Of a stretch of DNA of 64,000 bases, positions 37,649 to 53,723 are shown piece by piece. Source of the stretch: an uncultured bacterium (GTDB lineage: Bacteria > Fidelibacterota > Marinisomatia > Marinisomatales > UBA1611); NCBI GenBank assembly GCA_965660855.1, contig CBFIBM010000003.1, positions 90,909 to 154,908 of the forward strand, in the 5' to 3' direction. Every line of letters begins with the position of its first letter. Within the stretch, counting starts at the first letter, position 1. The notes under the pieces were generated by a model. It made no database searches, was not told the DNA's origin, and saw only the letters and a list, made by a program, of their open reading frames with translations. Both the position numbers and the translations under genes were made by a program.

Positions 37649-40600
37649 TTATTTTAAGTGGATCATTTTTCTTGAAGAGCTAAACTCTTTTGAATAAATA
37701 GATAGGAAATACATTCCAGATGGAACTGGTTTTCCATTATCATTTAATCCATTCCATATGATTTTGTGTTGTCCAGCTTGTTTAAATTCCTTTAAAGGTT
37801 TAAAAACCTCATTACCAGTTATATCATGAATTGCTATCTCAATATACGATGCTAATGGAAGGTCGTACTGAATAGTTGTAGTAGGGTTAAATGGATTTGG
37901 GTAATTCTGATATAATTCAAATTTGGTGGGTAGCCCATTATAGTCATTTTGATTGAGTAAATTATAATGAATAATAAGAGAATACCTTGAAGTTCCAATG
38001 ATAGGATATGGCTTTAATATTTCGCTAGTAGTTGGATTAAAGCTTCCTCTTGGTTCGATAAAAAGATTTAATCCACTTGTATTACTAATATCCAATTCAT
38101 TTCCTATTAAATTGTCTAATAAACTTATTGATATATGGTCAGGTAAACTTAGTTCTAGTAATGACATTGTTGCATTTGTTTCATTTGTTACAAAATATCC
38201 AGATGAATCAATATTTAAAAATAGTATATCTAATGGAATTGTAATGGATTCTTCATGGTGTAGGGGTAAGTGATTTATCTTTAAAGGAATATCATTTGAT
38301 AAGGTCATAGCAACCAACCGTGGTGAAATCTCTAAAGGTAATAATTTTTTTCCATCTGAAATGTCAGAGTTTATATTCCCGTTTATCCCAAATGTTAGAT
38401 AGACTTCATCGATATAATTGTTCGATGAAAAACTTAAGGTAAGTTTACCCGAGTCCTCATGGTCATTCCTTTGCCTAATTAATGTACTAGAGCCAGTCGC
38501 AATATCTTCTTCTTCAATTGTAAAACTACCTATCCCACCACTTGCTTGAATCCAAAAACCTTGGAATGGAGCAATCAAACCATTACTTAAGTCACCGGAT
38601 GATCCATTCCACATTTTCCAACTTGCAGTAGAATTATCCCAAATCGAAATAACATTTGAAAGATTATTTTTGGAAATATCATTCCAGCTTATTGTTTTAG
38701 TAAATGGATTACCTGCTAAGTAATAATTATCTTGCGGAATAGAACTTTTTGAAACACTTCCAGTATTCTGAGTGCCAGATAAAAAAAGATCAACAGGAAG
38801 ATCATTGTTTCCATCAAAATCTATATCATTAAAAACATAAATGAGGAAACCTTGTCCTGCATTTAAAGACTGAGTTGATATATTCGTAATAGGTGTCCAG
38901 CTTTGCTGAGCAAGGTTTAATATCCATATATTTGCATTACCATCCGTAGCATCTCCACCAGATATTCCTTGAATCCAAAGCTCATCTAACAAGTCTTCAA
39001 ATATAGTCCCTGAGACTGGACTACTCAACATTCTAAAACCAGAATTACCACTTATAGTTATATTATGGAGAGGAATCCAAGTATTTCCAAAAGTAGAACT
39101 TAAATCCCAATCATGTCCAGCAGTCCAATTAATATTCCCATCCTCATAAGCGCCAATATCTGGTGAACTACCATTATTAGTGTAGGTATCTGTTATTCCA
39201 GGTATAGAAATTCCAGCATCAATAAGTGGAGAGCTGGCTGCTGGAGAGAAATCACTATTTGATGTATCAGTTAAGACACTATTTAATGTTACACTCTCAT
39301 TATATCCATTCCAATTATTGCTGTATGTTCCAAAATCAATAGTTACATTATTGGTTCTGTGATTTGAAATTTTGTCTGCAGCATTATTTTTAATGATAGA
39401 TGTAGAATGATCATCGTTATTAATTTTTAGAACAATAATATCGTTTTTACTTCCGGAGTTTAAAACAGTATTGTTATATATTTTGTGATTATTTCCTTTT
39501 ACCATAATCCCGCCACTTTCACAGTTCCACGCTAAATTATGATGCATTATTCCATTTGTTCCGTCAGCAGATCCGCTATGATCAAATCTCGCACCATACT
39601 TCTCTGTATCATGAAGCCAGTTGAACCTACATATAGCCCCATCTTGCTGGTCTTCCATAAATTGAATCATAGAACCATCACTTTGTAAGTGGCCTGTATC
39701 ATACAGATTGTTATATTCTATCAATCCAGCATTCCCAATCATTACAGTAGCAGAACCACCAGTTTTATGAACCGTATTTTTTCGAAAAACATTGGACGTA
39801 CCATTCATGCGAATAGTCAGCATGATACTGCTATTATCTGCTACGGAATAATCAATTTTATTAAAATAGCAATTATCTAATGTATCTGTTCCACCCCACA
39901 TCTCTACAGCAGTTCCATCTGTATTCCTGAAAGCACAATTTCTAATAGTACTACCAGAACTACCTGAAGCAAATTTTGTCATTTCTGGCTCTGTGTCCAC
40001 AATTCGTAGCATTCGTTTTGAACAACTAGGATACATGAAGTTACACCCATAAACTAAACAATTATCACCGTTGGAGAAGTAGACTGTTGTTGCAAAAAAC
40101 TCTAAATTTTTAATTTGAACATATTTTGACCCTGTAATAGTAAATGCATATGATTGAATTTTTCCTCTAAACTCTAGTTTATTTGGATTAATTCCATTTT
40201 CAGTATAATAATATAGAGAGTCTTGATTGTTGTGGGTATCATACCACCATTCACCACTTTGATCAAGAAATTCACGTCGGCCTTCTAAATAATAGTAGTG
40301 ATGTTTTGTTTTCCAATTTGGAACGGTTGAATAGTTAAAGGTACCCCCTGAGTGATTTGTCACAATCCTAGACCATGTTCTAAAAGATCCTAAATTAAGT
40401 ATAGCAATTGCTTGTTTATTACTCTCATCAAGATCAAAGCCAGTAGAGCTAAGATTAATATTTGTTCCTTGTGAGTTTGTAAAAGGTTTATCTATAATTG
40501 TCCCATTAGAATATGCATTTTCATCATCATCTATTGTTCCTTTTGCCCAAAAATTATCATTGTCCCAAATTGTATCATCATCAAACTTAGCATTTGGCCA

Positions 40601-41029
40601 ACGAGCCATAATTTGTTCTTCCCAATTCACAAATAGTTGCCAAATATCCGATGTTAATTTTGTTCTCCATATATTTGAAGATCCAACTTGAGTCCATGAT
40701 GAGTTTATTGGTATGGTTCCATCCATTATTACTCTTTCATTATTGTAGTTTGTAAATATTATTGCAGACCCTGAAGAACCATTTAAATTATCGATAGTCA
40801 CACTTTCATGATATCGACCTTGGCGTATATAACATATATCACCCGAATTCATTACGCTTGCTGCTTTGGAGACAGTTTTAAAAGGCTTTGCAAGGGTAGT
40901 TCCATTATTCTCATCGTCACCATAAGAGATTGCAACGTAATAGTCAGTAGCTGATAGATGGGTGACGGCTACAGTAATATAAATAAGTTTTTGTATTGCT
41001 GGAGTCAATTTTCTAATCAAAAAAGACAT
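37649..41029 (-). CDS. Exported right-handed parallel beta-helix protein (pectin-lyase-like fold) with T9SS-A/FlgD-Ig-type C-terminal domain
   Basis: Signal peptide; TDYYVA..GDD.N.GT..KPFKT start; Asn-rich PbH1-like repeats; PDIGAYE; QNYPNPFNP...RKMIHLK. Confidence 0.82.
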   Translation of the reverse strand: MSFLIRKLTPAIQKLIYITVAVTHLSATDYYVAISYGDDENNGTTLAKPFKTVSKAASVMNSGDICYIRQGRYHESVTIDNLNGSSGSAIIFTNYNNERVIMDGTIPINSSWTQVGSSNIWRTKLTSDIWQLFVNWEEQIMARWPNAKFDDDTIWDNDNFWAKGTIDDDENAYSNGTIIDKPFTNSQGTNINLSSTGFDLDESNKQAIAILNLGSFRTWSRIVTNHSGGTFNYSTVPNWKTKHHYYYLEGRREFLDQSGEWWYDTHNNQDSLYYYTENGINPNKLEFRGKIQSYAFTITGSKYVQIKNLEFFATTVYFSNGDNCLVYGCNFMYPSCSKRMLRIVDTEPEMTKFASGSSGSTIRNCAFRNTDGTAVEMWGGTDTLDNCYFNKIDYSVADNSSIMLTIRMNGTSNVFRKNTVHKTGGSATVMIGNAGLIEYNNLYDTGHLQSDGSMIQFMEDQQDGAICRFNWLHDTEKYGARFDHSGSADGTNGIMHHNLAWNCESGGIMVKGNNHKIYNNTVLNSGSKNDIIVLKINNDDHSTSIIKNNAADKISNHRTNNVTIDFGTYSNNWNGYNESVTLNSVLTDTSNSDFSPAASSPLIDAGISIPGITDTYTNNGSSPDIGAYEDGNINWTAGHDWDLSSTFGNTWIPLHNITISGNSGFRMLSSPVSGTIFEDLLDELWIQGISGGDATDGNANIWILNLAQQSWTPITNISTQSLNAGQGFLIYVFNDIDFDGNNDLPVDLFLSGTQNTGSVSKSSIPQDNYYLAGNPFTKTISWNDISKNNLSNVISIWDNSTASWKMWNGSSGDLSNGLIAPFQGFWIQASGGIGSFTIEEEDIATGSSTLIRQRNDHEDSGKLTLSFSSNNYIDEVYLTFGINGNINSDISDGKKLLPLEISPRLVAMTLSNDIPLKINHLPLHHEESITIPLDILFLNIDSSGYFVTNETNATMSLLELSLPDHISISLLDNLIGNELDISNTSGLNLFIEPRGSFNPTTSEILKPYPIIGTSRYSLIIHYNLLNQNDYNGLPTKFELYQNYPNPFNPTTTIQYDLPLASYIEIAIHDITGNEVFKPLKEFKQAGQHKIIWNGLNDNGKPVPSGMYFLSIYSKEFSSSRKMIHLK

Positions 41030-41159: not shown

Positions 41160-41633
41160 CTACTGTTGAAATTCATTTTTATCTTGATTTAATTGCTCGA
41201 ACAATCTGAGAGAATTCCATTTATCAAAAACTTCATTTAAAAGATCTACATATTCATTGTAAATTCTGTAAATAATATTTTTTTTATCATTAATTCGATT
41301 ATCAGTATCCATTTTTAAATCGCCAATTAACTCTAACATAACTTCTGCAGATTCTTTTTCTTTTATTATCCAACTAATAGGTTCATTGATAGATGCTTGA
41401 ACAATTTTGTTTTTTTCTTCATTTTGAGTTATGAGAATAGGTATACCTGAAAGTTTTATTCGATTAATTAATGTAAGGGTAGTTTTTTCTTTTATTTTTA
41501 ATTCTTTTGAGAGCTCTTTAATAGAAAGCTTTTTTGGGTAGGCTTTGAAGATTAGATGTAGTATTTTTGAAGAAGTCTCATCTATTCCCCTTCTAGCAAT
41601 TCTTTTTTTATTATTTGAAAAAGTCGAAATCAT
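41160..41633 (-). CDS. Winged HTH-domain protein (HTH_11-like)
   Basis: LSIKELSKELKIKEKTTLTLINRIKLSGIPI; likely start ATG 41633 (track GTG 41660). Confidence 0.7.
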   Translation of the reverse strand: MISTFSNNKKRIARRGIDETSSKILHLIFKAYPKKLSIKELSKELKIKEKTTLTLINRIKLSGIPILITQNEEKNKIVQASINEPISWIIKEKESAEVMLELIGDLKMDTDNRINDKKNIIYRIYNEYVDLLNEVFDKWNSLRLFEQLNQDKNEFQQ

Positions 41634-41677
41634 ATGAATCTTTAATAATATATATTGCACAAAATTTAAATATATAT

Positions 41678-41739: not shown

Positions 41740-43569
41740 ATGATAGATAATAAATTTTATACTTTAGTAATAATGTTTTTATTTAGTCAAGTAGTAATAT
41801 GCTCGACTGAAGAATTTGATGAAAAGCCAACCACAAGGAATCCTGATTTTGCATTAATAGATTCTTTAGTCGATTATAAATATGCACAACCTGAAAGAGC
41901 TATTACATTTGCAAGGACGGTCTTGCAAAGAAAGAAATATGCTACTGGAGGTTTTCCAAAGATCGAAAGCGCATTCTATAATCATTTAGGTGAAATTTAT
42001 CTTCGAATGAATCTACCTTCACAAGCTTTATCTTATTTTATTGAAGCAAAAAGGTTGCTCCCTAAGACTAAAACTCCATGGCTAGATGTTCAATTTGGAA
42101 ATGTCTATTACAATCAAGATATGATGATAAAGGCAAAAGAAGCTTATGGGAAAGCTCTTGATATTTTTTCTAAAACTAAAATTTCTGGAGATAGACTCGA
42201 TGGAAAAAAGACGGGTGGAAACTCCATTGCAGGAATTGCAACGTGTTATAGCAATCTTGGTAAGATAGAAATACAATTAAAAAATTATGAATCTGCATTA
42301 TCATATTTTGAATTAGCTTTGGAAATTAGAAAAGATTTTTATGATAATTTGGATAGCAATAGGGACATTCAATTTAACGTTTTAACGGGTGTACTGTACC
42401 AGTATTATTTGCTTGCAGAACTATATCATATTTGGGAAATGGATGATTTAGCTATGGAAAAAATTTCTTTAATTGATAGTATAGCTATTCCCATTTATAA
42501 TAAAAATAATCTGGATCCACTTCCTAGCCAAGATAAAGGGTTAAGGTTGATTTATCGTGTATTAGGTCTATCAAACGATATGAAAATAATTATTAAAACA
42601 AATGAAAAAAAATATAAACAAGCTAAACAAGCATCTATTTTAGCAAATATGTTTTTGAAAGATTGGCCTATTTATCTTTCTAGAAGCTATTCAAATAGTG
42701 CAAGGATGTATTTTGAGCAAGATAGTTTATATAAATCATTGGAACATATCGATGCAGGGATTCGGGTGTGTCAATTAAACGGTTTAGGCTTTGAAGAATT
42801 GGAACTCCTCAAATACAAAATGGAATTATTAGAAAAAAGCAATTTAAACAAAAGTGCAATTGATATTGCATCAAAAATATTAGATAAGAAGATCATTATT
42901 GAAAAGATGCAAATGTCTGATATGGTAGAGAGCGTTGAGATTAAATCTGAATTATACCAAAGTAGAAATGAGCTTTTAAAATCAAAAAGAAGACAAACCC
43001 TACTTCAGATTCTAATAGGTGTTTTAATATTAATTACTGGCTTAATTATAATTTCTTATAGAAATAAAAAAAGATATTCTGAGCAAATTGCAATTATCAA
43101 TGAGCAAGAAAATCAGATTACTCAAGTTGAATTGAAAAATAAAGAAGCTGAACTAGTTAATATCTCTACTTTTGCTCTATCAAAAAATGACCTTTTAATT
43201 AATATTATTAAAGAATTAGAATATCACATAACTCTCATAAATGATAAGGATGATCAAAAATCTTTAAAACCATTAAAAAAGAAAATTCAGAGCTTTATTG
43301 ATGATGGTATAGATTGGGAGGATTATAAACTTCAATTTTCTAATGTTTTTCCTAATTTTGTCGACTCATTGATAGCAAATAATCCAGATATTACAAATAA
43401 TGATATCAAGTTATGTTGTTATCTAAAGATGAATATGAATACAAAAGATATAGCGCAGCTTTTTGGCTTAACTGTCAGAGCCATAGAGAATAAACGATAT
43501 AGACTTAGGAAAAAGCTTTCATTAGAAAAAGATGTTAGTCTTATGTCCTTTATAAATAGCTTAAAATAG
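41740..43569 (+). CDS. Membrane-anchored TPR sensor with C-terminal LuxR-type HTH
   Basis: Signal peptide, TPR repeats (YNHLGEIY, YSNLG), single TM (ILIGVLILITGLIII), C-terminal KDIAQLFGLTVRAIENKRYRLRKKL. Confidence 0.9.
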   Translation: MIDNKFYTLVIMFLFSQVVICSTEEFDEKPTTRNPDFALIDSLVDYKYAQPERAITFARTVLQRKKYATGGFPKIESAFYNHLGEIYLRMNLPSQALSYFIEAKRLLPKTKTPWLDVQFGNVYYNQDMMIKAKEAYGKALDIFSKTKISGDRLDGKKTGGNSIAGIATCYSNLGKIEIQLKNYESALSYFELALEIRKDFYDNLDSNRDIQFNVLTGVLYQYYLLAELYHIWEMDDLAMEKISLIDSIAIPIYNKNNLDPLPSQDKGLRLIYRVLGLSNDMKIIIKTNEKKYKQAKQASILANMFLKDWPIYLSRSYSNSARMYFEQDSLYKSLEHIDAGIRVCQLNGLGFEELELLKYKMELLEKSNLNKSAIDIASKILDKKIIIEKMQMSDMVESVEIKSELYQSRNELLKSKRRQTLLQILIGVLILITGLIIISYRNKKRYSEQIAIINEQENQITQVELKNKEAELVNISTFALSKNDLLINIIKELEYHITLINDKDDQKSLKPLKKKIQSFIDDGIDWEDYKLQFSNVFPNFVDSLIANNPDITNNDIKLCCYLKMNMNTKDIAQLFGLTVRAIENKRYRLRKKLSLEKDVSLMSFINSLK

Positions 43570-43625: not shown

Positions 43626-43682
43626 CTTTTTGTAACTACTTATTCTTAATTTCTTCTAACTAAAAATGAGTTTTAATTTAAA

Positions 43683-45041
43683 ATGAAAGTAAAATATCTA
43701 ATTTTATTCGTCCTTTACTTACTCATCAGTTCCTGTGAGGATGTTGAAGTTGCATACCCTGGAAATAATCAATCTACCAGAGCTGTTGCTCCAAATGGTA
43801 CTGCTGACTGGTTAATTGCGCAAGTGAATGGCGTTGGGCAATTACCCGAAAATTCAGCTGCAGGGATTGATATAGCAACCTTGAATGCTGAAGATGAAAA
43901 TCCAGATGATGAGTTTTCTTATTCGATTGCAAGTCAGACTATTGGCAATACTTCAGGTGATTATTTCAGAATTGAGAAAGAAGAAGATGGAGATTTTAAA
44001 CTTGTTTTAAATAATAGTAGTATTAACTATGAATCTCTAAGCGGTGTAAAGGTAGTTACGATTAATATTTCAGTTGAGGATGATAGTCCTGATAAATTAA
44101 AAAGTGATTTTTCATTGGAAGTGGAAATAATTAATGTGAATGAGTCCCCTTATTTTATTAACCTAAGCTCAATTACCCCTTTCGCTGATGAATATGTTGA
44201 ATTTTCTTCTGGAAATTTAATTTGGGATGATATAGACGAAGGTGATAATCCAATTTTAAATACACAAGGTCCTGGCTGGTTAAATATAAGTAATGAAGGT
44301 TTGTTTAGTGGGTCACCCTCATCTTCAGATGTGGGTGTTAACTCATTTGTTTTGACCATTTCTGATGACGATAATCCACCGATCTCTGTAAGTGAGGAAG
44401 TAAATATTGAAGTAAGAGAGAATGTCGCTCCAATTTTTGAAAACGCGCCCTCATCACTATCAATTAAGGTAGGTTGTTATGATACAAATGAAAGCATTGT
44501 AAATCTAAATTGGCGAGATCCAAATAATGATGCTCCATATTTTTCTGGTAATGATTTGGTTTCATTTAGTTTTAATGAAAATATCTCCTGGTTAAATATT
44601 TCTGATGATGGAAATATATTTTGTGTTGATGCTCCTCAAAATACAGATGCGGCTGTTTCTGAAATTGAAATTACCATTGCTGACAATAGGCCGAGTAATC
44701 CAAAAAGCACAACAAAATCATTTGATGTTACAGTAATAGCAAATGATGCACCAAGTTTCACAAACCTTAATGGCTTTGCAGATGAAATGGATTCAGGTAC
44801 AGAATATATCTTTGAATTGGAATATGATGATCCAAATGACGATCTTCTCGCATTTGAATTGAAGTTTGCTATTGGTAATAATGTATTTGATTCTGATCAA
44901 TTAGGGTGGGTTAGTATTGATAATTCAGGAGAAATCACTCTAAGTCCAACATCGAGTAATGCTGGAGATTATACGATCAGTTTTATTATTTCAGATGAAT
45001 GCTTTGAAGTTTCAGAAGAAAAATCTTTTACAATTAGATAA
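43683..45041 (+). CDS. Lipoprotein with cadherin/putative-Ig repeats
   Basis: Lipobox LISSC; PEN, INYE, NVNESPYF, NDAPSF and WLNIS cadherin/Ig-type motifs. Confidence 0.85.
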   Translation: MKVKYLILFVLYLLISSCEDVEVAYPGNNQSTRAVAPNGTADWLIAQVNGVGQLPENSAAGIDIATLNAEDENPDDEFSYSIASQTIGNTSGDYFRIEKEEDGDFKLVLNNSSINYESLSGVKVVTINISVEDDSPDKLKSDFSLEVEIINVNESPYFINLSSITPFADEYVEFSSGNLIWDDIDEGDNPILNTQGPGWLNISNEGLFSGSPSSSDVGVNSFVLTISDDDNPPISVSEEVNIEVRENVAPIFENAPSSLSIKVGCYDTNESIVNLNWRDPNNDAPYFSGNDLVSFSFNENISWLNISDDGNIFCVDAPQNTDAAVSEIEITIADNRPSNPKSTTKSFDVTVIANDAPSFTNLNGFADEMDSGTEYIFELEYDDPNDDLLAFELKFAIGNNVFDSDQLGWVSIDNSGEITLSPTSSNAGDYTISFIISDECFEVSEEKSFTIR

Positions 45042-45061
45042 ATTAAAAAAAAGGAATTAAC

Positions 45062-45460
45062 ATGAAGTTGAGATCAGATATTAATGCAATGACCGCCCTT
45101 GTTTATGGAGGAGCAGCATTCTTACTTGTTATCGTAGGGTTTAGGTCTATTCTAGCAACATTAGGAGATCATGTTGGTGTGATGACTTACTTATCTATTG
45201 CTGCACTTGGTTTAGAATTTGTACTTTTAATTTTATACGCAAAGGCTATTTATAACTTGGGTCCAGATTCAGGTGAAAGTAAAGTCAGCGCTGGGGCAAG
45301 TGTTGCGAACATGGATAGTAAAGAGATATCAGAGTTAACCAAAGCAGTAATAAAAGTTGCTGAAATGGGCGAGGGTTTAGCAAATCTCTCAAATGGGAAA
45401 GTTCGTGATGAAGTGAAAAAAGAGGTTAATGATATTCTTTCGAAAGCAATTAAGAAATAG
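45062..45460 (+). CDS. Putative GldL/PorL-like motor subunit (2 TM plus short cytoplasmic tail)
   Basis: TM1 VYGGAAFLLVIVGFR; TM2 with intramembrane Glu (ALGLEFVLLILYA); AAGGA RBS; resemblance judged by eye. Confidence 0.62.
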   Translation: MKLRSDINAMTALVYGGAAFLLVIVGFRSILATLGDHVGVMTYLSIAALGLEFVLLILYAKAIYNLGPDSGESKVSAGASVANMDSKEISELTKAVIKVAEMGEGLANLSNGKVRDEVKKEVNDILSKAIKK

Positions 45461-45469
45461 GTCTATAAA

Positions 45470-46909
45470 ATGAAAAAAGTAGAAGTCTATTTTCTAATCA
45501 ATCTTGGTGCTATACTTAGCCTGTTTGCTATTGAAGGTGAGCTGTCTATTTATATGCAAAGACAAGATGATATTTTAAAGAATGTTGCTCAAGATAAGCT
45601 TCAAACGCTTGTTGAAATAAGCAATGTTGAATCAAATTATGATGATTCCGATTATTACAGGTTATTTTTCGATGTTGAAGGACAATATGAACAAGGTTCA
45701 ATCGAGTTTAATCCTAGTTTTACTACTCCAATTGTAGAGGTTGATGGCGACTCGATAAAAGTAGATGATTCATATGTATGGGAATTGGATTCTGTTAATA
45801 TCGAGCCTTATACAGAAGAGGGGGATAAAAATAGATATGTAGCTAAGGTCAAGCTTGCATCCATTGAGGATAACTATCTAAATCAACCCTTTGATATAAA
45901 CCTAGGTGTGAATTTCATTCCCGCTATTGACACTGTTACTTACGCAAAATGGACAAAGGCGTTTGGAGATTACACAGTTACAGACAAATTGTTGAAGATA
46001 ATCGATGATGAAGTTTCCTCAAAAGGAAGCTTTGAAATGGAGAGGGAATTTGACACCCCGGTAACACTGATTTATATGGATGGTCAGCAAGCAGAGTTTT
46101 TTGTTTTGTTTGATAAAGAAAAGTATACTGTGTTAAGAGGTTTGGATTGGGAGATTCCGTTCAGTATTGGTGGGGTGAATTCTGAAGCTGATTTTGATAT
46201 TGAGATATCAAGTGGCAAAGATTTAGTAAAAGAGTCTCAACCAGGGTTGCCAAGATCATTTATCAAAGGTAAAGGTACGAGTGATGGAACTGTTGAAATT
46301 GTTGGGCTGAGGAAAAGAGATAAAAAATCTAGTATTACTAAGGCTAAGATAGTAGTAGTGGATCCACAGTATAGTTCTCCAACTGAAGACAAAGAAATTT
46401 ACATTGGAGAGCAGTATGTTTTTGATAGCAGAGTTAAAGATGTAGACAGAGATAGAATTTCTGTGAAAATTTCTGGATCTGCGGTAAACTCAAAAACTTT
46501 TAACTCTTACGAAGCAAAATTAAAACCTAAAAGTCGAGGAAAAGTTAAATTCCAAACTTTTGTTGATGGGAAAGCTGTAAAAGGATTATTTCGTGAAGTT
46601 TCTGTAAAGAAAATTCCACCGCCTAAGCTTGAGTTTAAGCGTTTAGGAAAAGGATCAAATAATATGATGGTTACAGTTACAACATATGGAAATAATAATG
46701 GTAAAAAAGCTGTAGTCCCTCTCTCTGGTATTTATGGAAAACTAGACGAAGAGCAAGCTGAAAAACGGGTTGGAAATCGAAGAGTTGTTAAATACAGCTT
46801 TGAAATGGACGAGCCACAATTTGGAACAACCACTGAGATAAGAATAAAAGTTGTGGATAAATATAAAGCAGAAACTGTCTCAGACAATGAATTTGAATAT
46901 TATGATTAA
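45470..46909 (+). CDS. Putative GldM/PorM-like single-pass protein with large periplasmic Ig-like region
   Basis: N-terminal TM YFLINLGAILSLFAIEGE; beta-rich periplasmic part; VSVKKIPPP resembles the GldM FRVK.IP.P linker; directly follows the GldL-like gene. Confidence 0.55.
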   Translation: MKKVEVYFLINLGAILSLFAIEGELSIYMQRQDDILKNVAQDKLQTLVEISNVESNYDDSDYYRLFFDVEGQYEQGSIEFNPSFTTPIVEVDGDSIKVDDSYVWELDSVNIEPYTEEGDKNRYVAKVKLASIEDNYLNQPFDINLGVNFIPAIDTVTYAKWTKAFGDYTVTDKLLKIIDDEVSSKGSFEMEREFDTPVTLIYMDGQQAEFFVLFDKEKYTVLRGLDWEIPFSIGGVNSEADFDIEISSGKDLVKESQPGLPRSFIKGKGTSDGTVEIVGLRKRDKKSSITKAKIVVVDPQYSSPTEDKEIYIGEQYVFDSRVKDVDRDRISVKISGSAVNSKTFNSYEAKLKPKSRGKVKFQTFVDGKAVKGLFREVSVKKIPPPKLEFKRLGKGSNNMMVTVTTYGNNNGKKAVVPLSGIYGKLDEEQAEKRVGNRRVVKYSFEMDEPQFGTTTEIRIKVVDKYKAETVSDNEFEYYD

Positions 46910-48647
46910 AAAACACCATATTTCTACTCTCTTATTTTTAAGTAGCACTCTATTATTTGGTCAAAAATCAATCTACTGGGAAGTAGCTGATCCTGTTGTG
47001 AACAGCGAGTTCATCGAATCTTATATTAATAGATTGATTGAGGTTGATAAATTTGAGCAAAATACCATTCAAGCTTCTCATACAATCATTGTCCAAATGG
47101 ATATTGAAAATGATAAAATTAGTTTAGAAAAACTCAAAGCTAAAAATTATCAAATGGGAGAGTACCAATCTTTTGATATGGAAGAAATTGAAAAGATGGA
47201 TCCTGTCCAGATTAATACATTAATGTCGCGAGAGTACAAGTGGAAAGATGTAAGTCGAAGAGATTTGTCTGAGTTAGAAGCTTTTAGTACTGTAGATAAT
47301 GTATTTCAAGAGCGTAGTTTTAAAGATGCTAGAGATGCATTTTGGTGGTCGAATTCTCAAATAAGCGTCAGTACTGCTCAGAAGGTTTTTATTAGACAGA
47401 AAAGTAATAGTCTTGCATTTCGTTTGGAGAAGGGTTTTCTTGACCTTGGACTGTCAAGAGAATTGTCTGAAAATTTGATTTTAGGCATTTCAAATGATGT
47501 TGTGAGCTCATATCTCATTATACCTGGAGCAACTAATTCTACAGCTATGGGTATTGGGCATCCTTTAGAAGGAAATTTAGGCTTTGGCTTTAAGTTTGAC
47601 ACTCATACTCTTGGTGGTCAGGTTAACTATATGGATGTCGATGGTCAGGATTATGACTATTCAAAAGTTTTTAGCAGAAAACATTTGGTGATCCCATCAA
47701 GTAGTGGACTATTATATTGGAGCAATACTTTCCAAATTAATAGAAATGTTGATTCCAAGTATGGTAATAAAGTTAAAGATCAAAAAAAAGAAAAAGCCAA
47801 AGCAGAAAAAGCAATCTCGAAATCTAGAGAATGGAATACTGGATCAGACAAATTTAATGGAGTATTTCAGGTAATGGAAGAAGAGACTGTTACTTTTATT
47901 GTTGATAGAGATAATAAAGCACACAAGTTAGCAGAAAAGGGTAAAGAGTGGACGACAAAATCAGGAAGTGTTGTTAAAGCAGTTTTAACAAATAGAAACC
48001 CCAAAGAGATTACCCTGTTAAGAGCAAAGGATAATTTTAAAATTGTACTAAAATTAAGAGATCTATCCGAAGAGGATCAATCTTTTGTTGAAAGTTTAAA
48101 GTGGGATGGTAAAAAAACAAAAACTCTATCTATTGAGCAACTAAATCCCTCCGATCAACAGCTTATTAGAGCAGCGACAGGGACTGTGAAGGCAAGAAGC
48201 GGTAAAGGTCGTGAGCTAAAAGTCAGTGAACCATTTGCTTCAATGCGGTTGAAAGCAGGTCTTGCATTTACTCAATTTGTTCACGCTAGAGTTTTTGAAG
48301 ATAATTTAGTATCGGTAATTGATCGTACGTCTGGCTCTAATTCATTAGGGTTTTATGCAAAAGTTGAGGGAGTGACAGATAGTAAAAGCTCCAAAGGGTA
48401 TATCCAAGTAAATGTAGCAGGTAATGGATTTAAGGCATACGGGTTGGGTTTAGAGCATAATGTATGGAAAATGGTTAATTTAGGAGTGGATTTGACTCTT
48501 TACCCTGATAACAGTTTTATCGAATTTAAAAATGATCGAAATAATCCAGAAGATAAATGGAGATGGTATCCAGGGAGTCGCCCAGATGAAAATGGAAAGG
48601 GCGGAGGAACTCTTTTCTTTTCTCCTTATATTACTGTGAACTTCTAA
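46902..48647 (+). CDS. Putative outer membrane beta-barrel protein with inserted SHD1-like domains
   Basis: Signal peptide from ATG 46902; amphipathic strands; C-terminal PYITVNF; EWTTKSG...LRDLSEEDQSFV SHD1-like motif. Confidence 0.68.
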   Translation: MIKKHHISTLLFLSSTLLFGQKSIYWEVADPVVNSEFIESYINRLIEVDKFEQNTIQASHTIIVQMDIENDKISLEKLKAKNYQMGEYQSFDMEEIEKMDPVQINTLMSREYKWKDVSRRDLSELEAFSTVDNVFQERSFKDARDAFWWSNSQISVSTAQKVFIRQKSNSLAFRLEKGFLDLGLSRELSENLILGISNDVVSSYLIIPGATNSTAMGIGHPLEGNLGFGFKFDTHTLGGQVNYMDVDGQDYDYSKVFSRKHLVIPSSSGLLYWSNTFQINRNVDSKYGNKVKDQKKEKAKAEKAISKSREWNTGSDKFNGVFQVMEEETVTFIVDRDNKAHKLAEKGKEWTTKSGSVVKAVLTNRNPKEITLLRAKDNFKIVLKLRDLSEEDQSFVESLKWDGKKTKTLSIEQLNPSDQQLIRAATGTVKARSGKGRELKVSEPFASMRLKAGLAFTQFVHARVFEDNLVSVIDRTSGSNSLGFYAKVEGVTDSKSSKGYIQVNVAGNGFKAYGLGLEHNVWKMVNLGVDLTLYPDNSFIEFKNDRNNPEDKWRWYPGSRPDENGKGGGTLFFSPYITVNF

Positions 48648-48660
48648 AAACGGAACTTAT

Positions 48661-50979
48661 ATGACTCTAGTATTTAAATATTTTACAATTTTAGCTTTTT
48701 CATCAACGCTTATTTTTAGTCAAAATGAGTTAAAATTAAAAAAAGACAAAGCGCAGGTTACCGAGGATGAAAGCATTAAAATAGATGTCTTAAAAAATGA
48801 CGGAATTAAAGATAAAAGTAACCTAATAATTAAGATTGAAAAACAAGCTCAAAAAGGAGTTGCCGTACTATCTGGGAAAATGATCGAGTATACCCCCAAT
48901 AGTAATGAAAGTGGATCAGATAGTTTTACATACTCAGTTGATATTGGTACTGGAGCTGGTACAGCTGAAGTCTCTGTCAAAATTAAATCAGTAAATGATG
49001 AACCCACCGGACTTAGTCTTTCTAGTAAGACAATTAAAGAAAATAAACCTGAAGGGACATTAATTGGTAAGCTAATTGTTGATGATCCAGATATGAATGA
49101 TACTTTCAACTTTGGTCTATCTAGAGATAGTAAAGCAGATTTTCGAATTGATGGTGAAAAGTTACTTTCAAAAAGATCATTTGATTATGAGGAGCAAAGT
49201 AAATATAATTTATCAATACAAGTATCAGACGCAGCAGGTGAATCTAATGTTTTTGATATAGCAGTGAATATTGAAAATGAAAATGAAGCTCCAAAACTCA
49301 TTGGGGATAAAGACTTAAACATTAATCACCCGGAAGATGCGGGAAAAATTGTGGCAAGAATTCAAGTAGAAGACCCTGATTCTGACCAATCGGGTCTTAA
49401 ATACAAGCTTACTAAGAGTCTAGATAAGGAACATTTTAAAATCACTCGTAGTGGCGATATCTCATTTTTAAAAGAGCCGGATTTTGAAAACCCAAAAGAT
49501 AAAAATAAAAATAATACTTATAATGTTTCATACAAAGTAACAGATAGTAAAGACCCTTCCCTTTCCATTGAAGGAGAAGTTACTATTAATCTTCTTGATG
49601 CTGAGGAAACAGAAGTTAAGGCTTTGGACAAAAGGAAATTTATTGCTTGGTCTGTAGATCATCAACCATATCACATTTTGATGGAAGAAGCCGTAGAGGA
49701 TTATTTGAAATTAAAATATTCTGATGATTCTATTGATGAGGCAGTTGATGATGGATATGGTGCTAGTATTCAGGAACTAAAGCCAACAGATCAAATTATT
49801 ATTGTTCAGCAAAAAGGTAATAATAGTGAAATTTATGAAATTTGGTATGGTAACGGATTAGACTATACCATAATCGATAGAGAAAAAGTGGATTGGATTT
49901 TTAGTCAGGATATACAATCTGTTCTTGTCACAAAAGATCAATATCTTAATAGTGATTCAGAGACAGTATTTCATAAAAGTGAAAGTGATAGATTGATGGC
50001 TAGCTATGGAAATGAATTTTCTGTCTGGCACTCCAATAATTTCAAAATGTCACTTGCTTCCTTTTCTATGAGATCGAATTTATTGCAATACGCATCTAAT
50101 ATGCGTGTAGGAAATAAATTAATAGGAATTCCAGGTGAGCTTGGTGCAGGGGCAGAATTTGGTATTGCGACACAACGATCAGAATTTGGTTTTCGATTGC
50201 CAATTTCATTTGATTTTGCAACATCTAATTCTGATGGTATTGATTTACCAGAAGCTGATAATTTAGGGTTGTATGCACGTGGAAATATTGAAAATTTATT
50301 TTCAACTAATACTGATTTTCATGGATTGATTGGGTTTTCTTTTTATTCACCAAGTGTTGGTAATGTTTTAAGTTCCCCTAAAGATTTAGAAAGTGACAGT
50401 ACAAAGTGGGGGGCTATAAACGACTCCACTGAAAATATTAATATTTTAGATAGCTATGCTTTATTTGGTGCGACTGTTCAAGTTCCAGTAAATGCACCTT
50501 TTATTGGTCGCTTAACCGCAACACCGGGTATTCATTACATAAAGATAGCCCACCGTTTAAAAGATAAGCGCTATTCAGCAGATGATGACTTGTATGAAAG
50601 GCTTTATTATAATCAAATGTTTGAGCAAAATGATAGTACTTTGACTTTCAATTCAGAAAAATTAAATGATGAAAATGAATCTTTTACATCTCTATCATCT
50701 TTTTACTTACGATTTGATCTACTAGGGAAAATAGGGGAAAAGCCTAACGTAATTGAGAGATTATCATTCTTGGATTTCATTAAAATTTCCAATGTCCCTT
50801 TTTATGAGGTTTCATTACAGTTTATTCCCGGTTTTAATACAATCAGCACACTGAATGTGAATTTCTCAGACCAATTTGGCATGTCTTTGACACGTTTGTC
50901 TTCCGATGATGCATTAAAAGGAAATTGGATGCCAGAATCAAAACTTTGGTTTGGATTTAATTATCGTGCTAATTTTTAA
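48661..50979 (+). CDS. Ig/cadherin-repeat protein with putative C-terminal beta-barrel
   Basis: Signal peptide; IDVLKND/YTP/DSFTY Ig domain; FDYE, PDFENP and NEAP cadherin motifs; C-terminal WFGFNYRANF. Confidence 0.75.
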   Translation: MTLVFKYFTILAFSSTLIFSQNELKLKKDKAQVTEDESIKIDVLKNDGIKDKSNLIIKIEKQAQKGVAVLSGKMIEYTPNSNESGSDSFTYSVDIGTGAGTAEVSVKIKSVNDEPTGLSLSSKTIKENKPEGTLIGKLIVDDPDMNDTFNFGLSRDSKADFRIDGEKLLSKRSFDYEEQSKYNLSIQVSDAAGESNVFDIAVNIENENEAPKLIGDKDLNINHPEDAGKIVARIQVEDPDSDQSGLKYKLTKSLDKEHFKITRSGDISFLKEPDFENPKDKNKNNTYNVSYKVTDSKDPSLSIEGEVTINLLDAEETEVKALDKRKFIAWSVDHQPYHILMEEAVEDYLKLKYSDDSIDEAVDDGYGASIQELKPTDQIIIVQQKGNNSEIYEIWYGNGLDYTIIDREKVDWIFSQDIQSVLVTKDQYLNSDSETVFHKSESDRLMASYGNEFSVWHSNNFKMSLASFSMRSNLLQYASNMRVGNKLIGIPGELGAGAEFGIATQRSEFGFRLPISFDFATSNSDGIDLPEADNLGLYARGNIENLFSTNTDFHGLIGFSFYSPSVGNVLSSPKDLESDSTKWGAINDSTENINILDSYALFGATVQVPVNAPFIGRLTATPGIHYIKIAHRLKDKRYSADDDLYERLYYNQMFEQNDSTLTFNSEKLNDENESFTSLSSFYLRFDLLGKIGEKPNVIERLSFLDFIKISNVPFYEVSLQFIPGFNTISTLNVNFSDQFGMSLTRLSSDDALKGNWMPESKLWFGFNYRANF

Positions 50980-51050
50980 ATCCTAGATTCTTTATTTGAG
51001 GACTAAAGTAAAGAGAATTTTTTTTAATTAAAACCTGGACAAAGAACTAA

Positions 51051-53723
51051 ATGCTTTTTAGAACTTGTTACATAATACTTTTTCTTTTTTCTTTACTTAA
51101 TGCACAAACATCTATTCTTGACTCTAAAGAGCTTGGTATTACAAAACCTAAGAAGCTCATAGAAGCAATTCTTGGTGATAATATTGAGGCTCCAGGTGGA
51201 TCTGCAGTTATCCTAGATGCTTCAAAATCAAGGCCTAACAATGGATCCTTGACCTTCGAGTGGTCTTTTCCTGAGAATCTTATTTTTGAAGATGATTATG
51301 AATATGATAAATCCCAAACAGTAATAACTTATTCATCTGAAGAATTAAAAGAGGTTCCTTTTCAAAATAAAACTAGTATTAAAACACTTGTTACTAGAAA
51401 TCAATATATAGAATTAGACCTTCCAAATTATACAACAGCTAAAACTTTTTCAATTATTCTCAAAGTTCAAAACCATGTAGGTATGAAAGACTTTGATACA
51501 TTATTTGTTAATCTAATACCTCCTATTAAAACTAGCTTACAAGTGGTTGATGTTGGAGATGAATATTTATCCATTCAGGATAGCTCTGAGTCCGTTGGAG
51601 TCGAGTTAACAGAAACTATAATAGATGAATCGTTACTATCTATACAACCAATTAATAAAAATTTATTTAAACCAAGAGAAATTGATTTGATTAACTCTCT
51701 TATTTTTAATGAGATTAAAAACAAAGGATTTGATAATGTTTTAAATCCAAATAGGTACATATCAGAAGAGATAAAATTAAATAGACTTTATGAAAGATTT
51801 AAAATTGTTAAGGATACTGTAATAACTGAAAATAATCCTAGTGCACCAGCTGGACCATCTCTTATCCAAAAAATCCAAAGTTTTTTTATTAAAGATAAAA
51901 ATAATGATTCCCTAAAAACCACAACAACAGAAGATACATTAAATATTGTAATAAAAGGAAAAGATGACTCTAATCTTGAAGTCGTATTAGCTGATGAAGA
52001 GGATCCTGATCTAAAAATAGATTCATTAAGTAATGACTCAACTGTAGTAACAGACTCAATCAATACGGAAAATTTATTTAGCCTAGGGTTTTTTAAGTCC
52101 TTTTTTCAAAAATTTTCTAAAAAACAGGAAAATAATGTTATCTTAAAAGATAGTACCTCTTTAATTGTCGATGATTCTTCCGTTGTTAAAAATATTACAA
52201 ATAATGATATTCCTGTAACGGATATATCAGAAGAACTAAATAAAACCATTGAATATGATTCATCCCTTGTTTCAGCTGTTACCTATGATACCACTATTGT
52301 TGTAGACACACTGAAATATAATGTGGTCGTGGACACAACACTTTTCTATAATTTTTCCTGTGCCTCAGACTCTTGTGCAGGAGAAAATGCAATTTTAGAA
52401 GGAGCTGGTAAAGTTTTAACTTGGGGTCTAAACGATGATTCTGAGTTGGAGTTCCGTTATTTCTCAGTAGCAAATCTTTTTAACGAAGATGTTCATTTTG
52501 ATTGGGTAATCAGCAATGTCCAATTAAACCCTAGCTCAAAAGAAAAAATAATTTATCCAACCACTCTAGCAACAAGTATCACTGGTAGTCTTTTTGTCGG
52601 AGAAGCAAACTCAAATAATATATTAGAAATAACAAAAGACCAGAATGCTCAAATAGTTGTAGAAGGGAATATTTTGAATGAAGAGCTTTCAAAACCATCA
52701 GGAATGGAAATAGGTTCAAACCAGGAAATATATTTTTCTGATAAATATAATAATAGAATTCTAATTAATTCTGGAGAAAGCTTCAGAACTCTTGTCAACA
52801 GTAAGAGTAAGTATAATAATCAAGATAACTCTTCTCCAATGGACCCTTCTTCAGTACGAATAGGACCAAATGGAGCAGTTTATGTATTATTCGATAAAGA
52901 TGGATCGGTTTATAAGATTGCTAAAAGAGAAATTAGCACTATTCTAAATCCTAATTTACTAGATGGGATTGATGATTTTGCGATTAATTCAAAAGGTGAA
53001 ATTTTCATTTTAAGTACTGAAATGAAAAAAATCTATAAAATCATCAATAAAAATGAAATTATAACTATAGCTGGTTTAGACCGTCCTGATAAGAATAGAA
53101 AAATATATATGAAGAGGAAAGGTCCTAATTCTTTGAGCTTTTCAGGAACTGCATTAGAACCTGCTCTTATGAATGATGTTCCTTCAAAAAAAATTCCATT
53201 TGGAAACCCTGTTAGTATTGATATTGATTTAAATGATAATCTTTACATTGCAGATGATGAATATGGAACCATTAGGAGAATTGATAAAGAGGGTACAATA
53301 AGCACATTTTTTGGGCCTAGCGATGAATTAAAAGGTGTTTCTCAAATTAGACTAACAAATGAAGAAAATTTTCAGATATATATTTCAAAACCATTTGCCC
53401 ATGAATTAAAAAAGATTAGTTTGAGTGAAATTTCTCCATGGGTTAAAAAATCAACCATTGATCACCCTAGGTATATAATTCAAGAAAAGGGTGTTTATGG
53501 ACTTGAGGATCAATTAAATGAATCTCTCTCGTTCACATTAGATGAGATCTTACCAAAAGTAAGAAAAACGTTTTTGGAGCGAATTAGTAATCAAAATAAA
53601 AAGGTTACTAAATTTATGGGAAAGAATCCACTTTTCTGTGGTCTTTTATTACTACTTGTGAATCAAGGTGTCGCAGCTAGCCTTGAAGATCCACCTAAAT
53701 TACCTCCAGATTTTCCATTTTAA
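51051..53723 (+). CDS. Exported protein with PKD-like domain, NHL-like beta-propeller and C-terminal hydrophobic/Pro-rich tail
   Basis: VILDASKS...LTFEW (PKD-like); PSGM/PVSIDID..NLYIAD..IRRID (NHL); ends FCGLLLLLV...PPKLPPDFPF. Confidence 0.72.
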   Translation: MLFRTCYIILFLFSLLNAQTSILDSKELGITKPKKLIEAILGDNIEAPGGSAVILDASKSRPNNGSLTFEWSFPENLIFEDDYEYDKSQTVITYSSEELKEVPFQNKTSIKTLVTRNQYIELDLPNYTTAKTFSIILKVQNHVGMKDFDTLFVNLIPPIKTSLQVVDVGDEYLSIQDSSESVGVELTETIIDESLLSIQPINKNLFKPREIDLINSLIFNEIKNKGFDNVLNPNRYISEEIKLNRLYERFKIVKDTVITENNPSAPAGPSLIQKIQSFFIKDKNNDSLKTTTTEDTLNIVIKGKDDSNLEVVLADEEDPDLKIDSLSNDSTVVTDSINTENLFSLGFFKSFFQKFSKKQENNVILKDSTSLIVDDSSVVKNITNNDIPVTDISEELNKTIEYDSSLVSAVTYDTTIVVDTLKYNVVVDTTLFYNFSCASDSCAGENAILEGAGKVLTWGLNDDSELEFRYFSVANLFNEDVHFDWVISNVQLNPSSKEKIIYPTTLATSITGSLFVGEANSNNILEITKDQNAQIVVEGNILNEELSKPSGMEIGSNQEIYFSDKYNNRILINSGESFRTLVNSKSKYNNQDNSSPMDPSSVRIGPNGAVYVLFDKDGSVYKIAKREISTILNPNLLDGIDDFAINSKGEIFILSTEMKKIYKIINKNEIITIAGLDRPDKNRKIYMKRKGPNSLSFSGTALEPALMNDVPSKKIPFGNPVSIDIDLNDNLYIADDEYGTIRRIDKEGTISTFFGPSDELKGVSQIRLTNEENFQIYISKPFAHELKKISLSEISPWVKKSTIDHPRYIIQEKGVYGLEDQLNESLSFTLDEILPKVRKTFLERISNQNKKVTKFMGKNPLFCGLLLLLVNQGVAASLEDPPKLPPDFPF

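Follow-up and report, generated by a model that had tools for sequence, protein, structure and literature searches.

A GldL/GldM-like gene pair linked to two outer-membrane barrel genes in a member of the Fidelibacterota

Few classes of ion-driven mechanical motor are known, and GldLM, which belongs among them, has been linked in print to the type IX secretion and gliding apparatus of the Bacteroidota. Here we ask what a pair of adjacent genes resembling gldL and gldM, with neither gldK nor gldN beside it, is doing in a bacterium outside the Bacteroidota. The pair lies in a 64,000-nucleotide (nt) stretch of DNA (the window, in whose numbering all coordinates are given) that covers positions 90,909 to 154,908 of contig CBFIBM010000003.1 in GenBank assembly GCA_965660855.1. 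This assembly (2.09 Mb in 81 contigs, 84% complete) represents a member of the Fidelibacterota (Marinimicrobia/SAR406), a phylum of the Fibrobacterota-Chlorobiota-Bacteroidota (FCB) group, and thereby bears out an earlier note, made from the letters of the window alone, that had assigned the pair to an FCB lineage other than the Bacteroidota. We describe two proteins, here called L-like and M-like, each of which specifically matches its own counterpart in the Bacteroidota motor, and whose genes are followed by two genes for paralogous outer-membrane barrel proteins. We favor the reading, at a probability of roughly 60%, that L and M make up a motor of the GldLM type, driven by protons and coupled to a barrel pair of its own, in a self-contained four-gene machine.

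The L-M pair and its relation to GldL and GldM

The pair belongs to a plus-strand run of six closely packed genes (43683-53723) that encode, in order, a cadherin-domain protein, the L-like protein, the M-like protein, the products of genes 3 and 4, and an NHL-repeat protein. The L-like open reading frame (ORF; 132 amino acids (aa), 45062..45460, plus strand) and the M-like ORF (479 aa, 45470..46909, plus strand) are separated by 9 nt (45461-45469), as the earlier note had reported, and all of the residues that it singled out are found where it had placed them in both proteins. As with GldL and GldM, and with PorL and PorM, the genes are adjacent and L precedes M.

The L-like sequence reads ...ALVY15-G-G-A-A...VGFR28SIL...LGLE52FVLL, and its family alignments reveal two hydrophobic stretches, at residues ~10-30 and ~42-62, followed by a short helical cytoplasmic tail of ~70 aa. 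With GldL and PorL it shares a helical cytoplasmic tail and two transmembrane (TM) helices, of which TM1 contains an aromatic-G-x-GA(A/S)-like motif and ends on the periplasmic side in a basic residue, and TM2 contains a Glu. The tail is as short as had been claimed, the protein comprising 132 aa vs 200-406 aa in the 25 GldL proteins that we sampled; across the L-like family, length ranges from 130 to 276 aa and the variation comes from the cytoplasmic tail. A search of 1.84 billion representative proteins with a profile of the L-like TM hairpin returned 71 clusters at E <= 0.001, and residue conservation was counted over 52 representatives of the family. Y15, A18 and G26 are each present in 52/52 and position 28 is basic in all of them (45 R, 7 K). 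The earlier note had made its reading depend on conservation of E52 among homologues, and 50 of the 52 representatives keep this residue.

The M-like protein begins MKKVEVY7F8LINLGAILSLFAIE22GE24... and contains, further downstream, the segment ...EVSVKKIPPPKLEF (P383-P385). Conservation was counted over 15 M-like proteins, in which Y7, F8, I10, E22, G23, E24, P383 and P385 are each invariant, position 3 is K or R in 13/15 and position 5 is E or D in 15/15; the invariant E22-G-E24 lies at the periplasmic end of the TM helix. The 'INL' motif that the earlier note had seen in this helix is present in the source protein and is not family-wide, position 11 being N in 8/15 and Y in 7/15, and L12 being kept in 12/15. 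An AlphaFold2 model (mean predicted local distance difference test score, pLDDT, 81.2) predicts a helix at residues 2-45, in which the TM segment continues as a long helix, and divides the periplasmic part into four domains: D1 (48-190, mixed beta/alpha), D2 (211-297), D3 (309-380) and D4 (386-476), which resembles an immunoglobulin (Ig) domain. GldM and PorM, too, have a single TM helix at the N-terminus and a periplasmic rod made of four domains, and they are of comparable size (479 aa for M-like vs ~510 aa); D2-D3, including the ...VK.IP.P linker, are homologous between M-like and GldM. Four domains are also what a 2022 structural preprint describes for the periplasmic region of GldM (10.1101/2022.01.28.478170).

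Genuine GldK, GldL, GldM and GldN sequences were gathered from 25 Bacteroidota gldKLMN loci and compared with the proteins of the cassette (25 GldL, 25 GldM, 24 GldK, 24 GldN). Bacteroidota genomes were reached by means of the 16S probe CF319a, an 18-mer, after which TIGR03513 found GldL in 5/5; as positive controls, TIGR03513, PF22827 and TIGR03517 each detected their protein in 5/5 Bacteroidota genomes. By hhalign, L-like matched the 25 GldL at 84.5-84.7% probability (P 6.7e-6, 106 columns), and M-like matched the 25 GldM at 85.9-89.1% over 171-173 columns (P 4.5e-6 and 173 columns for the run at 86.6%). The cross-pairs gave 0.1% (L-like vs GldM) and 0.0% (M-like vs GldL), and L-like vs GldK, GldM and GldN each reached <= 0.9%. 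In a 5x4 matrix of such comparisons, the diagonal stood at 84.5% (L) and 89.1% (M) and the other 18 pairs at <= 2.6%.

The similarity to GldL and GldM is therefore specific, as the earlier note had proposed (84.7% and 86.6% for the matching pairs), and neither shuffled nor reversed sequences ever reached the observed scores. For L, the observed score was 44.4, compared with 16.8 +/- 3.2 for local-block shuffles (maximum 25.7, 0/60 reaching the observed value), 17.5 for the reversed sequence and 0/40 for full shuffles. For M, the observed score was 53.8, compared with 17.0 +/- 3.0 for local-block shuffles (maximum 26.1, 0/40) and 18.2 for the reversed sequence.

Hidden Markov model (HMM) searches in both directions are in keeping with these results. 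A GldM HMM ranked M-like first among the 3198 ORFs of the source genome, with E 3e-6 to 5e-6 and a runner-up at E 0.06-0.09, and hmmsearch placed positions 236-415 of the GldM profile colinear with M-like 217-395, including 'vkkiPdP' vs 'VKKIPPP'. The GldM-homologous part of M-like, as delimited by hmmsearch and hhalign, comprises D2-D3 and the linker (residues 217-392; 46118..46645, plus strand), which run colinear with GldM residues ~237-416, and D4 lies outside the alignment. Conversely, when the 157 ORFs of the 25 gldKLMN loci were searched with filters off, GldM took ranks 1-10 for the M-like HMM and GldL took 13 of the top 14 ranks for the L-like HMM. The ESM Atlas, which we treat as a lead only, gave GldL_N (0.78) as the first named look-alike family for L-like and the third and fourth domains of GldM (0.80) as the first named look-alike for M-like.

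The residues that matter in GldLM provide a further comparison. The GldLM structure paper describes GldL E49 and GldM Y17 as invariant, GldL Y13 and GldM R9 as highly conserved, and the important residues (Y13, K27, H30 and E49 of GldL; R9 and Y17 of GldM) as lying in two bands (10.1101/2020.05.11.089193). Among our 25 sampled proteins of each kind, K27 and E49 of GldL were present in 25/25, H30 in 23/25 and Y13 in 11/25, and R9 and Y17 of GldM were each present in 25/25. L-like has counterparts for three of these residues, namely Y15 for Y13, R/K28 for K27 and E52 for E49, and none for H30. E52 paired with GldL E49 in every hhalign run, both TM helices were colinear with TM1 and TM2 of GldL, and in the TM alignment Y and GAA were in register and R28 fell one column off K27.

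Several observations weigh against homology, or against carrying it too far. Sequence identity is too low for any curated model to recognize either protein: Pfam and NCBIfam gave no match for L-like, and no GldM family match for M-like, at E <= 1. TIGR03513 and PF22827 (GldL_N) found nothing in the source genome, PF22827 even at E <= 10; the same was true of TIGR03517 and PF12081, the latter again even at E <= 10; and none of the 71 L-like representatives matched Pfam GldL_N at E <= 0.1. HMM searches of PDB sequences with the L-like and M-like profiles at E <= 10 returned no GldL, GldM, PorL or PorM, the matches being only designed coiled coils and CTLA-4-type Ig domains. When the whole M-like model was searched with Foldseek and VIA-align, only generic Ig-domain chains were retrieved, with GldM/PorM outside the top 50 in both. 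A GldL HMM fails to pick L-like from its genome (ranks 2105, 179 and 178 of 3198); much of the L score derives from TM2 and the helical cytoplasmic stretch, and with hhalign restricted to the TM segments the probability was 5.6% (12 sequences) or 26% (52 sequences). The N-terminal 60 aa of M-like and GldM compare at 0.4%, with no TM similarity, and M-like D1, which is mixed beta/alpha, shows no similarity to GldM, whose D1 is all-helical. The R9...Y17 pair that is invariant in GldM is not reproduced at that spacing in the 15 M-like proteins, where K/R3 and Y7 are 4 residues apart vs 8, and where K/R3, E5, Y7-F8 and E22-G-E24 are found instead. A search of five whole Bacteroidota genomes with the M-like profile and filters on gave no match at E <= 1, a search in which the filter may have dropped GldM. 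Finally, hhalign probabilities of 85-89% do not reach the range in which a match is customarily regarded as certain.

Two of the outcomes that the earlier note had named as refuting its reading were examined, and neither came about: profile-profile alignment yielded a specific match to GldL and GldM, and E52 is conserved. The fold searches with the M-like model did not single out GldM. Taking both sides into account, we consider it very probable, from sequence comparison, that L and M are true, very distant homologues of GldL and GldM.

Barrel partners and distribution in the phylum

Downstream of the pair, gene 3 (598 aa from the first TTG; 46851..48647, plus strand) encodes a protein in which a signal peptide and an N-terminal periplasmic domain precede a putative C-terminal barrel that ends in ...ITVNF. 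Alignment of orthologues indicates that its true start is probably the ATG at 46887. The protein has no match in Pfam or NCBIfam, and an insert of ~110-155 residues (window 47826-48098) is found only in the source family and in one further locus (L050), being absent from the orthologues of other families.

Gene 4 (772 aa; 48661..50979, plus strand) encodes a signal peptide, a cadherin/Big_9 extension at residues ~28-310 (Pfam Cadherin 3.5e-20, Big_9 1.1e-17) that is limited to the source bacterial family and one other locus, and a conserved core that starts at residue 316 (457 aa; 49606..50976, plus strand). AlphaFold2 modeled the core as an N-terminal alpha/beta domain (~1-135 of the core) followed by a barrel (pLDDT 73.7, predicted template modeling score 0.68), and Foldseek matched it to outer-membrane barrels only. 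With VIA-align, the barrel compared best with the FadL homologue 3dwo (Z 14.0, 221 residues), then with 6h3i_F (Z 13.4, 202 residues, root-mean-square deviation 4.0) and OmpG (Z 12.9); FadL and TodX themselves gave Z 12.0 and 11.7. Chain F of 6H3I, a type IX secretion system (T9SS) translocon entry, is presumably PorV. The gene 4 core is thus, in its predicted structure, an outer-membrane barrel of the FadL class, an assignment that extends to fold class only, given the nearly equal score of OmpG.

Genes 3 and 4 are paralogues, with the gene 3 protein and the gene 4 core aligning at 97.7% (P 1.5e-12, 337 columns, hhalign), so that the predicted resemblance of gene 4 to FadL-class barrels brings in gene 3 as its paralogue; no further paralogues were found in the genome. 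Outer-membrane barrels of the FadL class are 14-stranded, and the proteins of genes 3 and 4 differ from them in carrying an extra N-terminal periplasmic domain of ~135 residues. Neither protein is related in sequence to the components that occupy this place in Bacteroidota operons, probabilities being <= 2.6% against 24 GldK and 24 GldN (hhalign). Against the PorV-like proteins of the same genome they were <= 1.5%, and the PorV model had no match in the cassette region. The suggestion that barrel genes stand here in the place of gldK and gldN is therefore well founded, in that two paralogous barrel proteins unrelated to GldK/GldN follow L and M.

The four genes stay together. L, then M, then gene 3, then gene 4 is the order in every related locus that is long enough, in several families of the phylum, over a range in which L-like and M-like identity to the source proteins drops to about 25-33%. 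One genome (G080) has two L-M cassettes, on different contigs (C95 and C64), with L proteins of 276 and 178 aa.

The cassette is patchily distributed. Among 301 Fidelibacterota genomes, 180 of them of high quality, the M-like profile detected it in 37/301 and 17/180, respectively. A search with the single L sequence gave 41 genome hits, and because the weakest four (E 2.7e-4 to 4.8e-3, within frames of 558-1057 aa) are probably due to chance, the count obtained with the M profile is the safer figure. SprA, on the other hand, was present in 296/301 genomes (293 over the family cut-off) and in 180/180 of those of high quality, and canonical GldM and canonical GldL_N were each found in 0/301, with models that had detected their proteins in 5/5 positive controls. 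The cassette, found in 37/301 genomes vs 296/301 for SprA, is therefore not the general T9SS motor of the phylum. This mismatch fits the idea, put forward in the earlier note, that the pair may power a different outer-membrane machine.

The source genome has SprA, above the family cut-off, and several PorV-like barrels, none of which adjoins the cassette. As had been noted, gldK and gldN are absent from the neighborhood, and a search of the whole genome (84% complete) did not find them either. Two candidates for the missing genes were rejected: GldK is a lipoprotein of the FGE fold, and a GldK-like match on contig C5 is a generic FGE-domain protein (78 bits vs a cut-off of 350 bits) without L or M neighbors, and a GldN HMM match at C3:8172-9257 is spurious, being a 39-residue local match in a protein without a signal peptide. 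A GldM HMM finds only M-like in this genome, where the cassette is the sole relative of GldLM. In these respects it differs from the gldKLMN and porKLMN operons: it is without gldK and gldN, it occurs in the Fidelibacterota, and it does not track SprA.

Flanking genes and expression

The cassette is flanked on both sides by genes with a narrower distribution. The gene directly upstream of L (43683..45041, plus strand, 20 nt from L) encodes a 452-aa protein with Pfam cadherin/He_PIG domains, and its N-terminus contains a Cys that, read by eye, resembles a lipoprotein signal (...LLISSC). By tblastn, 9 loci of the source family have this gene immediately before L, and it is absent from the cassettes of other families; it is an accessory gene, conserved beside L only within the source family. 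The gene that follows gene 4 after 71 nt (51051..53723, plus strand) encodes an 890-aa protein with Pfam TEN_NHL/NHL repeats, and conservation of its N-terminal 258 aa is seen in 3 loci of the source family, again downstream of the cassette. It is possibly a family-specific accessory gene as well. Farther downstream, 53772-58916 (plus strand) encodes a repeat-rich, fiber-like protein of 1714 aa.

Other families have other genes upstream. In three loci of one family (L048, L049 and L050), five conserved genes form a cluster ahead of the cassette; their products, read by eye, are a small zinc-ribbon-like protein, a membrane protein of 242-262 aa, a ParA/MinD-like ATPase, a protein of 459-541 aa and a membrane protein of 326-332 aa. 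In another family (L044, L054 and L023-L029), a protein of 296-314 aa is encoded directly upstream of L, and its C-terminus, again read by eye, resembles a TonB C-terminal domain (...PVGGYE.L...I.YP...R..GIEG.V).

Just upstream of the six-gene cluster in the window, 41740-43569 (plus strand) encodes a 609-aa protein with tetratricopeptide repeats (TPR), a membrane segment and a C-terminal helix-turn-helix (HTH) that resembles LuxR/sigma-70 region 4, and a small winged-HTH protein is encoded divergently to it (41160-41660, minus strand). Either of these could be a regulator of the cluster. Beyond them, 37649-41029 (minus strand) encodes a beta-helix protein of 1126 aa in which a FlgD-Ig domain accompanies a C-terminal sorting domain of the T9SS type (Por_Secre_tail, 26.7 bits vs a cut-off of 27); this protein is likely T9SS cargo encoded 4 kb upstream of the cassette.

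Metatranscriptome contigs from two studies extend over the cassette, one of 8024 nt (X1, covering 43671-51674) and one of 6756 nt (X2, covering 43845-50600), with lower depth on the cassette flanks. This gives a weak hint that the cassette is expressed as a unit, from contigs that cannot show a single transcript and in which DNA carry-over is possible. The first position of the X1 contig, 43671, is 12 nt ahead of the start codon (ATG) of the cadherin gene and is preceded by an Illumina adapter; this point may mark the end of a fragment or of a transcript. A scan for promoters and terminators did no better than on shuffled sequence (promoters 75 vs 82 +/- 10, terminators 9 vs 7.5 +/- 3.2).

A candidate trans-envelope machine

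How might these four proteins work together? In the solved GldLM complex, five L subunits cage two M TM helices. By analogy, hairpins of the L-like protein would be arranged as an inner-membrane ring with the M-like TM helices inside it, and the near-invariant E52 of TM2 would serve as the proton-binding site, with R28 at the periplasmic interface. The passage of protons would make the M-like dimer rotate or bend, and its four-domain rod would reach the outer membrane and there engage the periplasmic N-terminal domains of the gene 3 and gene 4 barrels, in place of a GldK/GldN ring. The four genes would then constitute one trans-envelope machine, patchy in the Fidelibacterota and separate from the near-universal SprA translocon. 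The stoichiometry of the ring, its coupling to protons, the binding of M to the barrels and the task that the machine performs are what we infer in this model; a complex prediction with four L hairpins and two M N-termini, short of a 5:2 complement (score 0.01, mark 0.32), counts neither for nor against it. As for the output, the cadherin extension of gene 4, together with the cadherin gene upstream, gives a hint that surface adhesins may be exported, displayed or moved.

ExbB-ExbD-TonB and TolQ-TolR-TolA are 5:2 proton motors that energize outer-membrane processes. The proposed arrangement would follow the same logic, namely an ion-driven inner-membrane complex and a periplasm-spanning partner that acts on outer-membrane barrels. 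The components differ, however: L-like has two TM helices, not three or four, and the membrane carboxylate is on the two-TM L-like protein, unlike in ExbD/TolR/MotB, where it is on the single-pass partner. Moreover, neither L-like nor M-like matched the Pfam MotA/ExbB/TolQ or ExbD/TolR models at E <= 1.

Our model has to be set against other ways of accounting for the locus. One is that the pair is the T9SS motor of this lineage and drives SprA, with genes 3 and 4 replacing the GldK/GldN ring. The genome does have SprA, PorV-like barrels and, 4 kb upstream of the cassette, a protein with a C-terminal sorting domain; it has no other relative of GldL or GldM, and the barrel of gene 4 shares its fold class with 6h3i_F (Z 13.4). 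Yet most relatives that bear SprA are without the cassette (296/301 vs 37/301, with the cassette in only 17/180 high-quality genomes), in the source genome the cassette lies beside neither SprA nor PorV-like genes, and genes 3 and 4 have no sequence relation to GldK, GldN or the PorV-like proteins. We therefore regard a role in driving SprA as unlikely.

The remaining alternatives concern the pair itself. Descendants of GldLM might no longer be ion-driven and might instead provide a static trans-envelope scaffold for barrels or cadherin-type adhesins, which would be in line with the short L tail (~70 aa), the absence of the R9/Y17 pair of GldM at its usual spacing and an M-like D1 unlike that of GldM. 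That the membrane Glu (50/52) and the basic residue closing TM1 (52/52) persist over such deep divergence, in family members down to ~28-30% identity, is hard to reconcile with a protein that has no charge-dependent function, and we consider a scaffold quite improbable. It is just as doubtful, in our judgment, that the resemblance is convergent or due to chance, and that the locus merely encodes an unrelated small membrane protein next to a periplasmic protein with Ig domains. In favor of this view, neither GldL nor GldM stands out in curated models, in PDB sequence searches or in fold searches, TM hairpins and Ig-like domains are widespread, and the Atlas scores are weak (0.78 and 0.80); chance would nevertheless have to explain how two adjacent genes, in the same order as in the Bacteroidota, each match only their own counterpart, with rank enrichment in both directions and with shuffled sequences far under the observed scores. 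A proton-driven GldLM-type motor with its own barrel pair remains the reading that we prefer.

A bolder proposal, which we offer tentatively and at clearly less than even odds, is that the cassette represents a second, self-contained class of trans-envelope rotary machine, one with a minimal L (130-280 aa), an M whose first domain is new and two FadL-class barrels that act as a heterodimeric effector in the outer membrane. It would serve a process other than secretion through SprA, for instance one in which cadherin-type adhesins are displayed or moved. The T9SS is repeatedly termed specific to the Bacteroidota or to the FCB group in the literature searched, and the 2022 GldLM structure preprint excluded non-Bacteroidetes sequences from its analysis (10.1101/2022.01.28.478170). 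Full-text searches found no GldL/GldM-like system described outside of T9SS and gliding, and none in Marinimicrobia, although bioRxiv supplements might list distant homologues.

If this bolder reading is correct, GldLM-type motors are not confined to the T9SS of the Bacteroidota. The L-like protein would offer structural work a natural minimal L subunit, and the features that have survived extreme divergence, namely the Glu of TM2, the basic residue in TM1 and the rod formed by D2-D3, can now be named. The locus also sharpens the question of how SprA is energized in the Fidelibacterota, where SprA is present in 296/301 genomes, canonical GldL and GldM in 0/301 and the cassette in 37/301; with SprA near-universal and GldKLMN not recognizable, energization of the T9SS in this phylum would, on the bolder reading, have to differ from the textbook model. 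A divergent L-M pair with different outer-membrane partners would mean, in turn, that the motor module is reusable.

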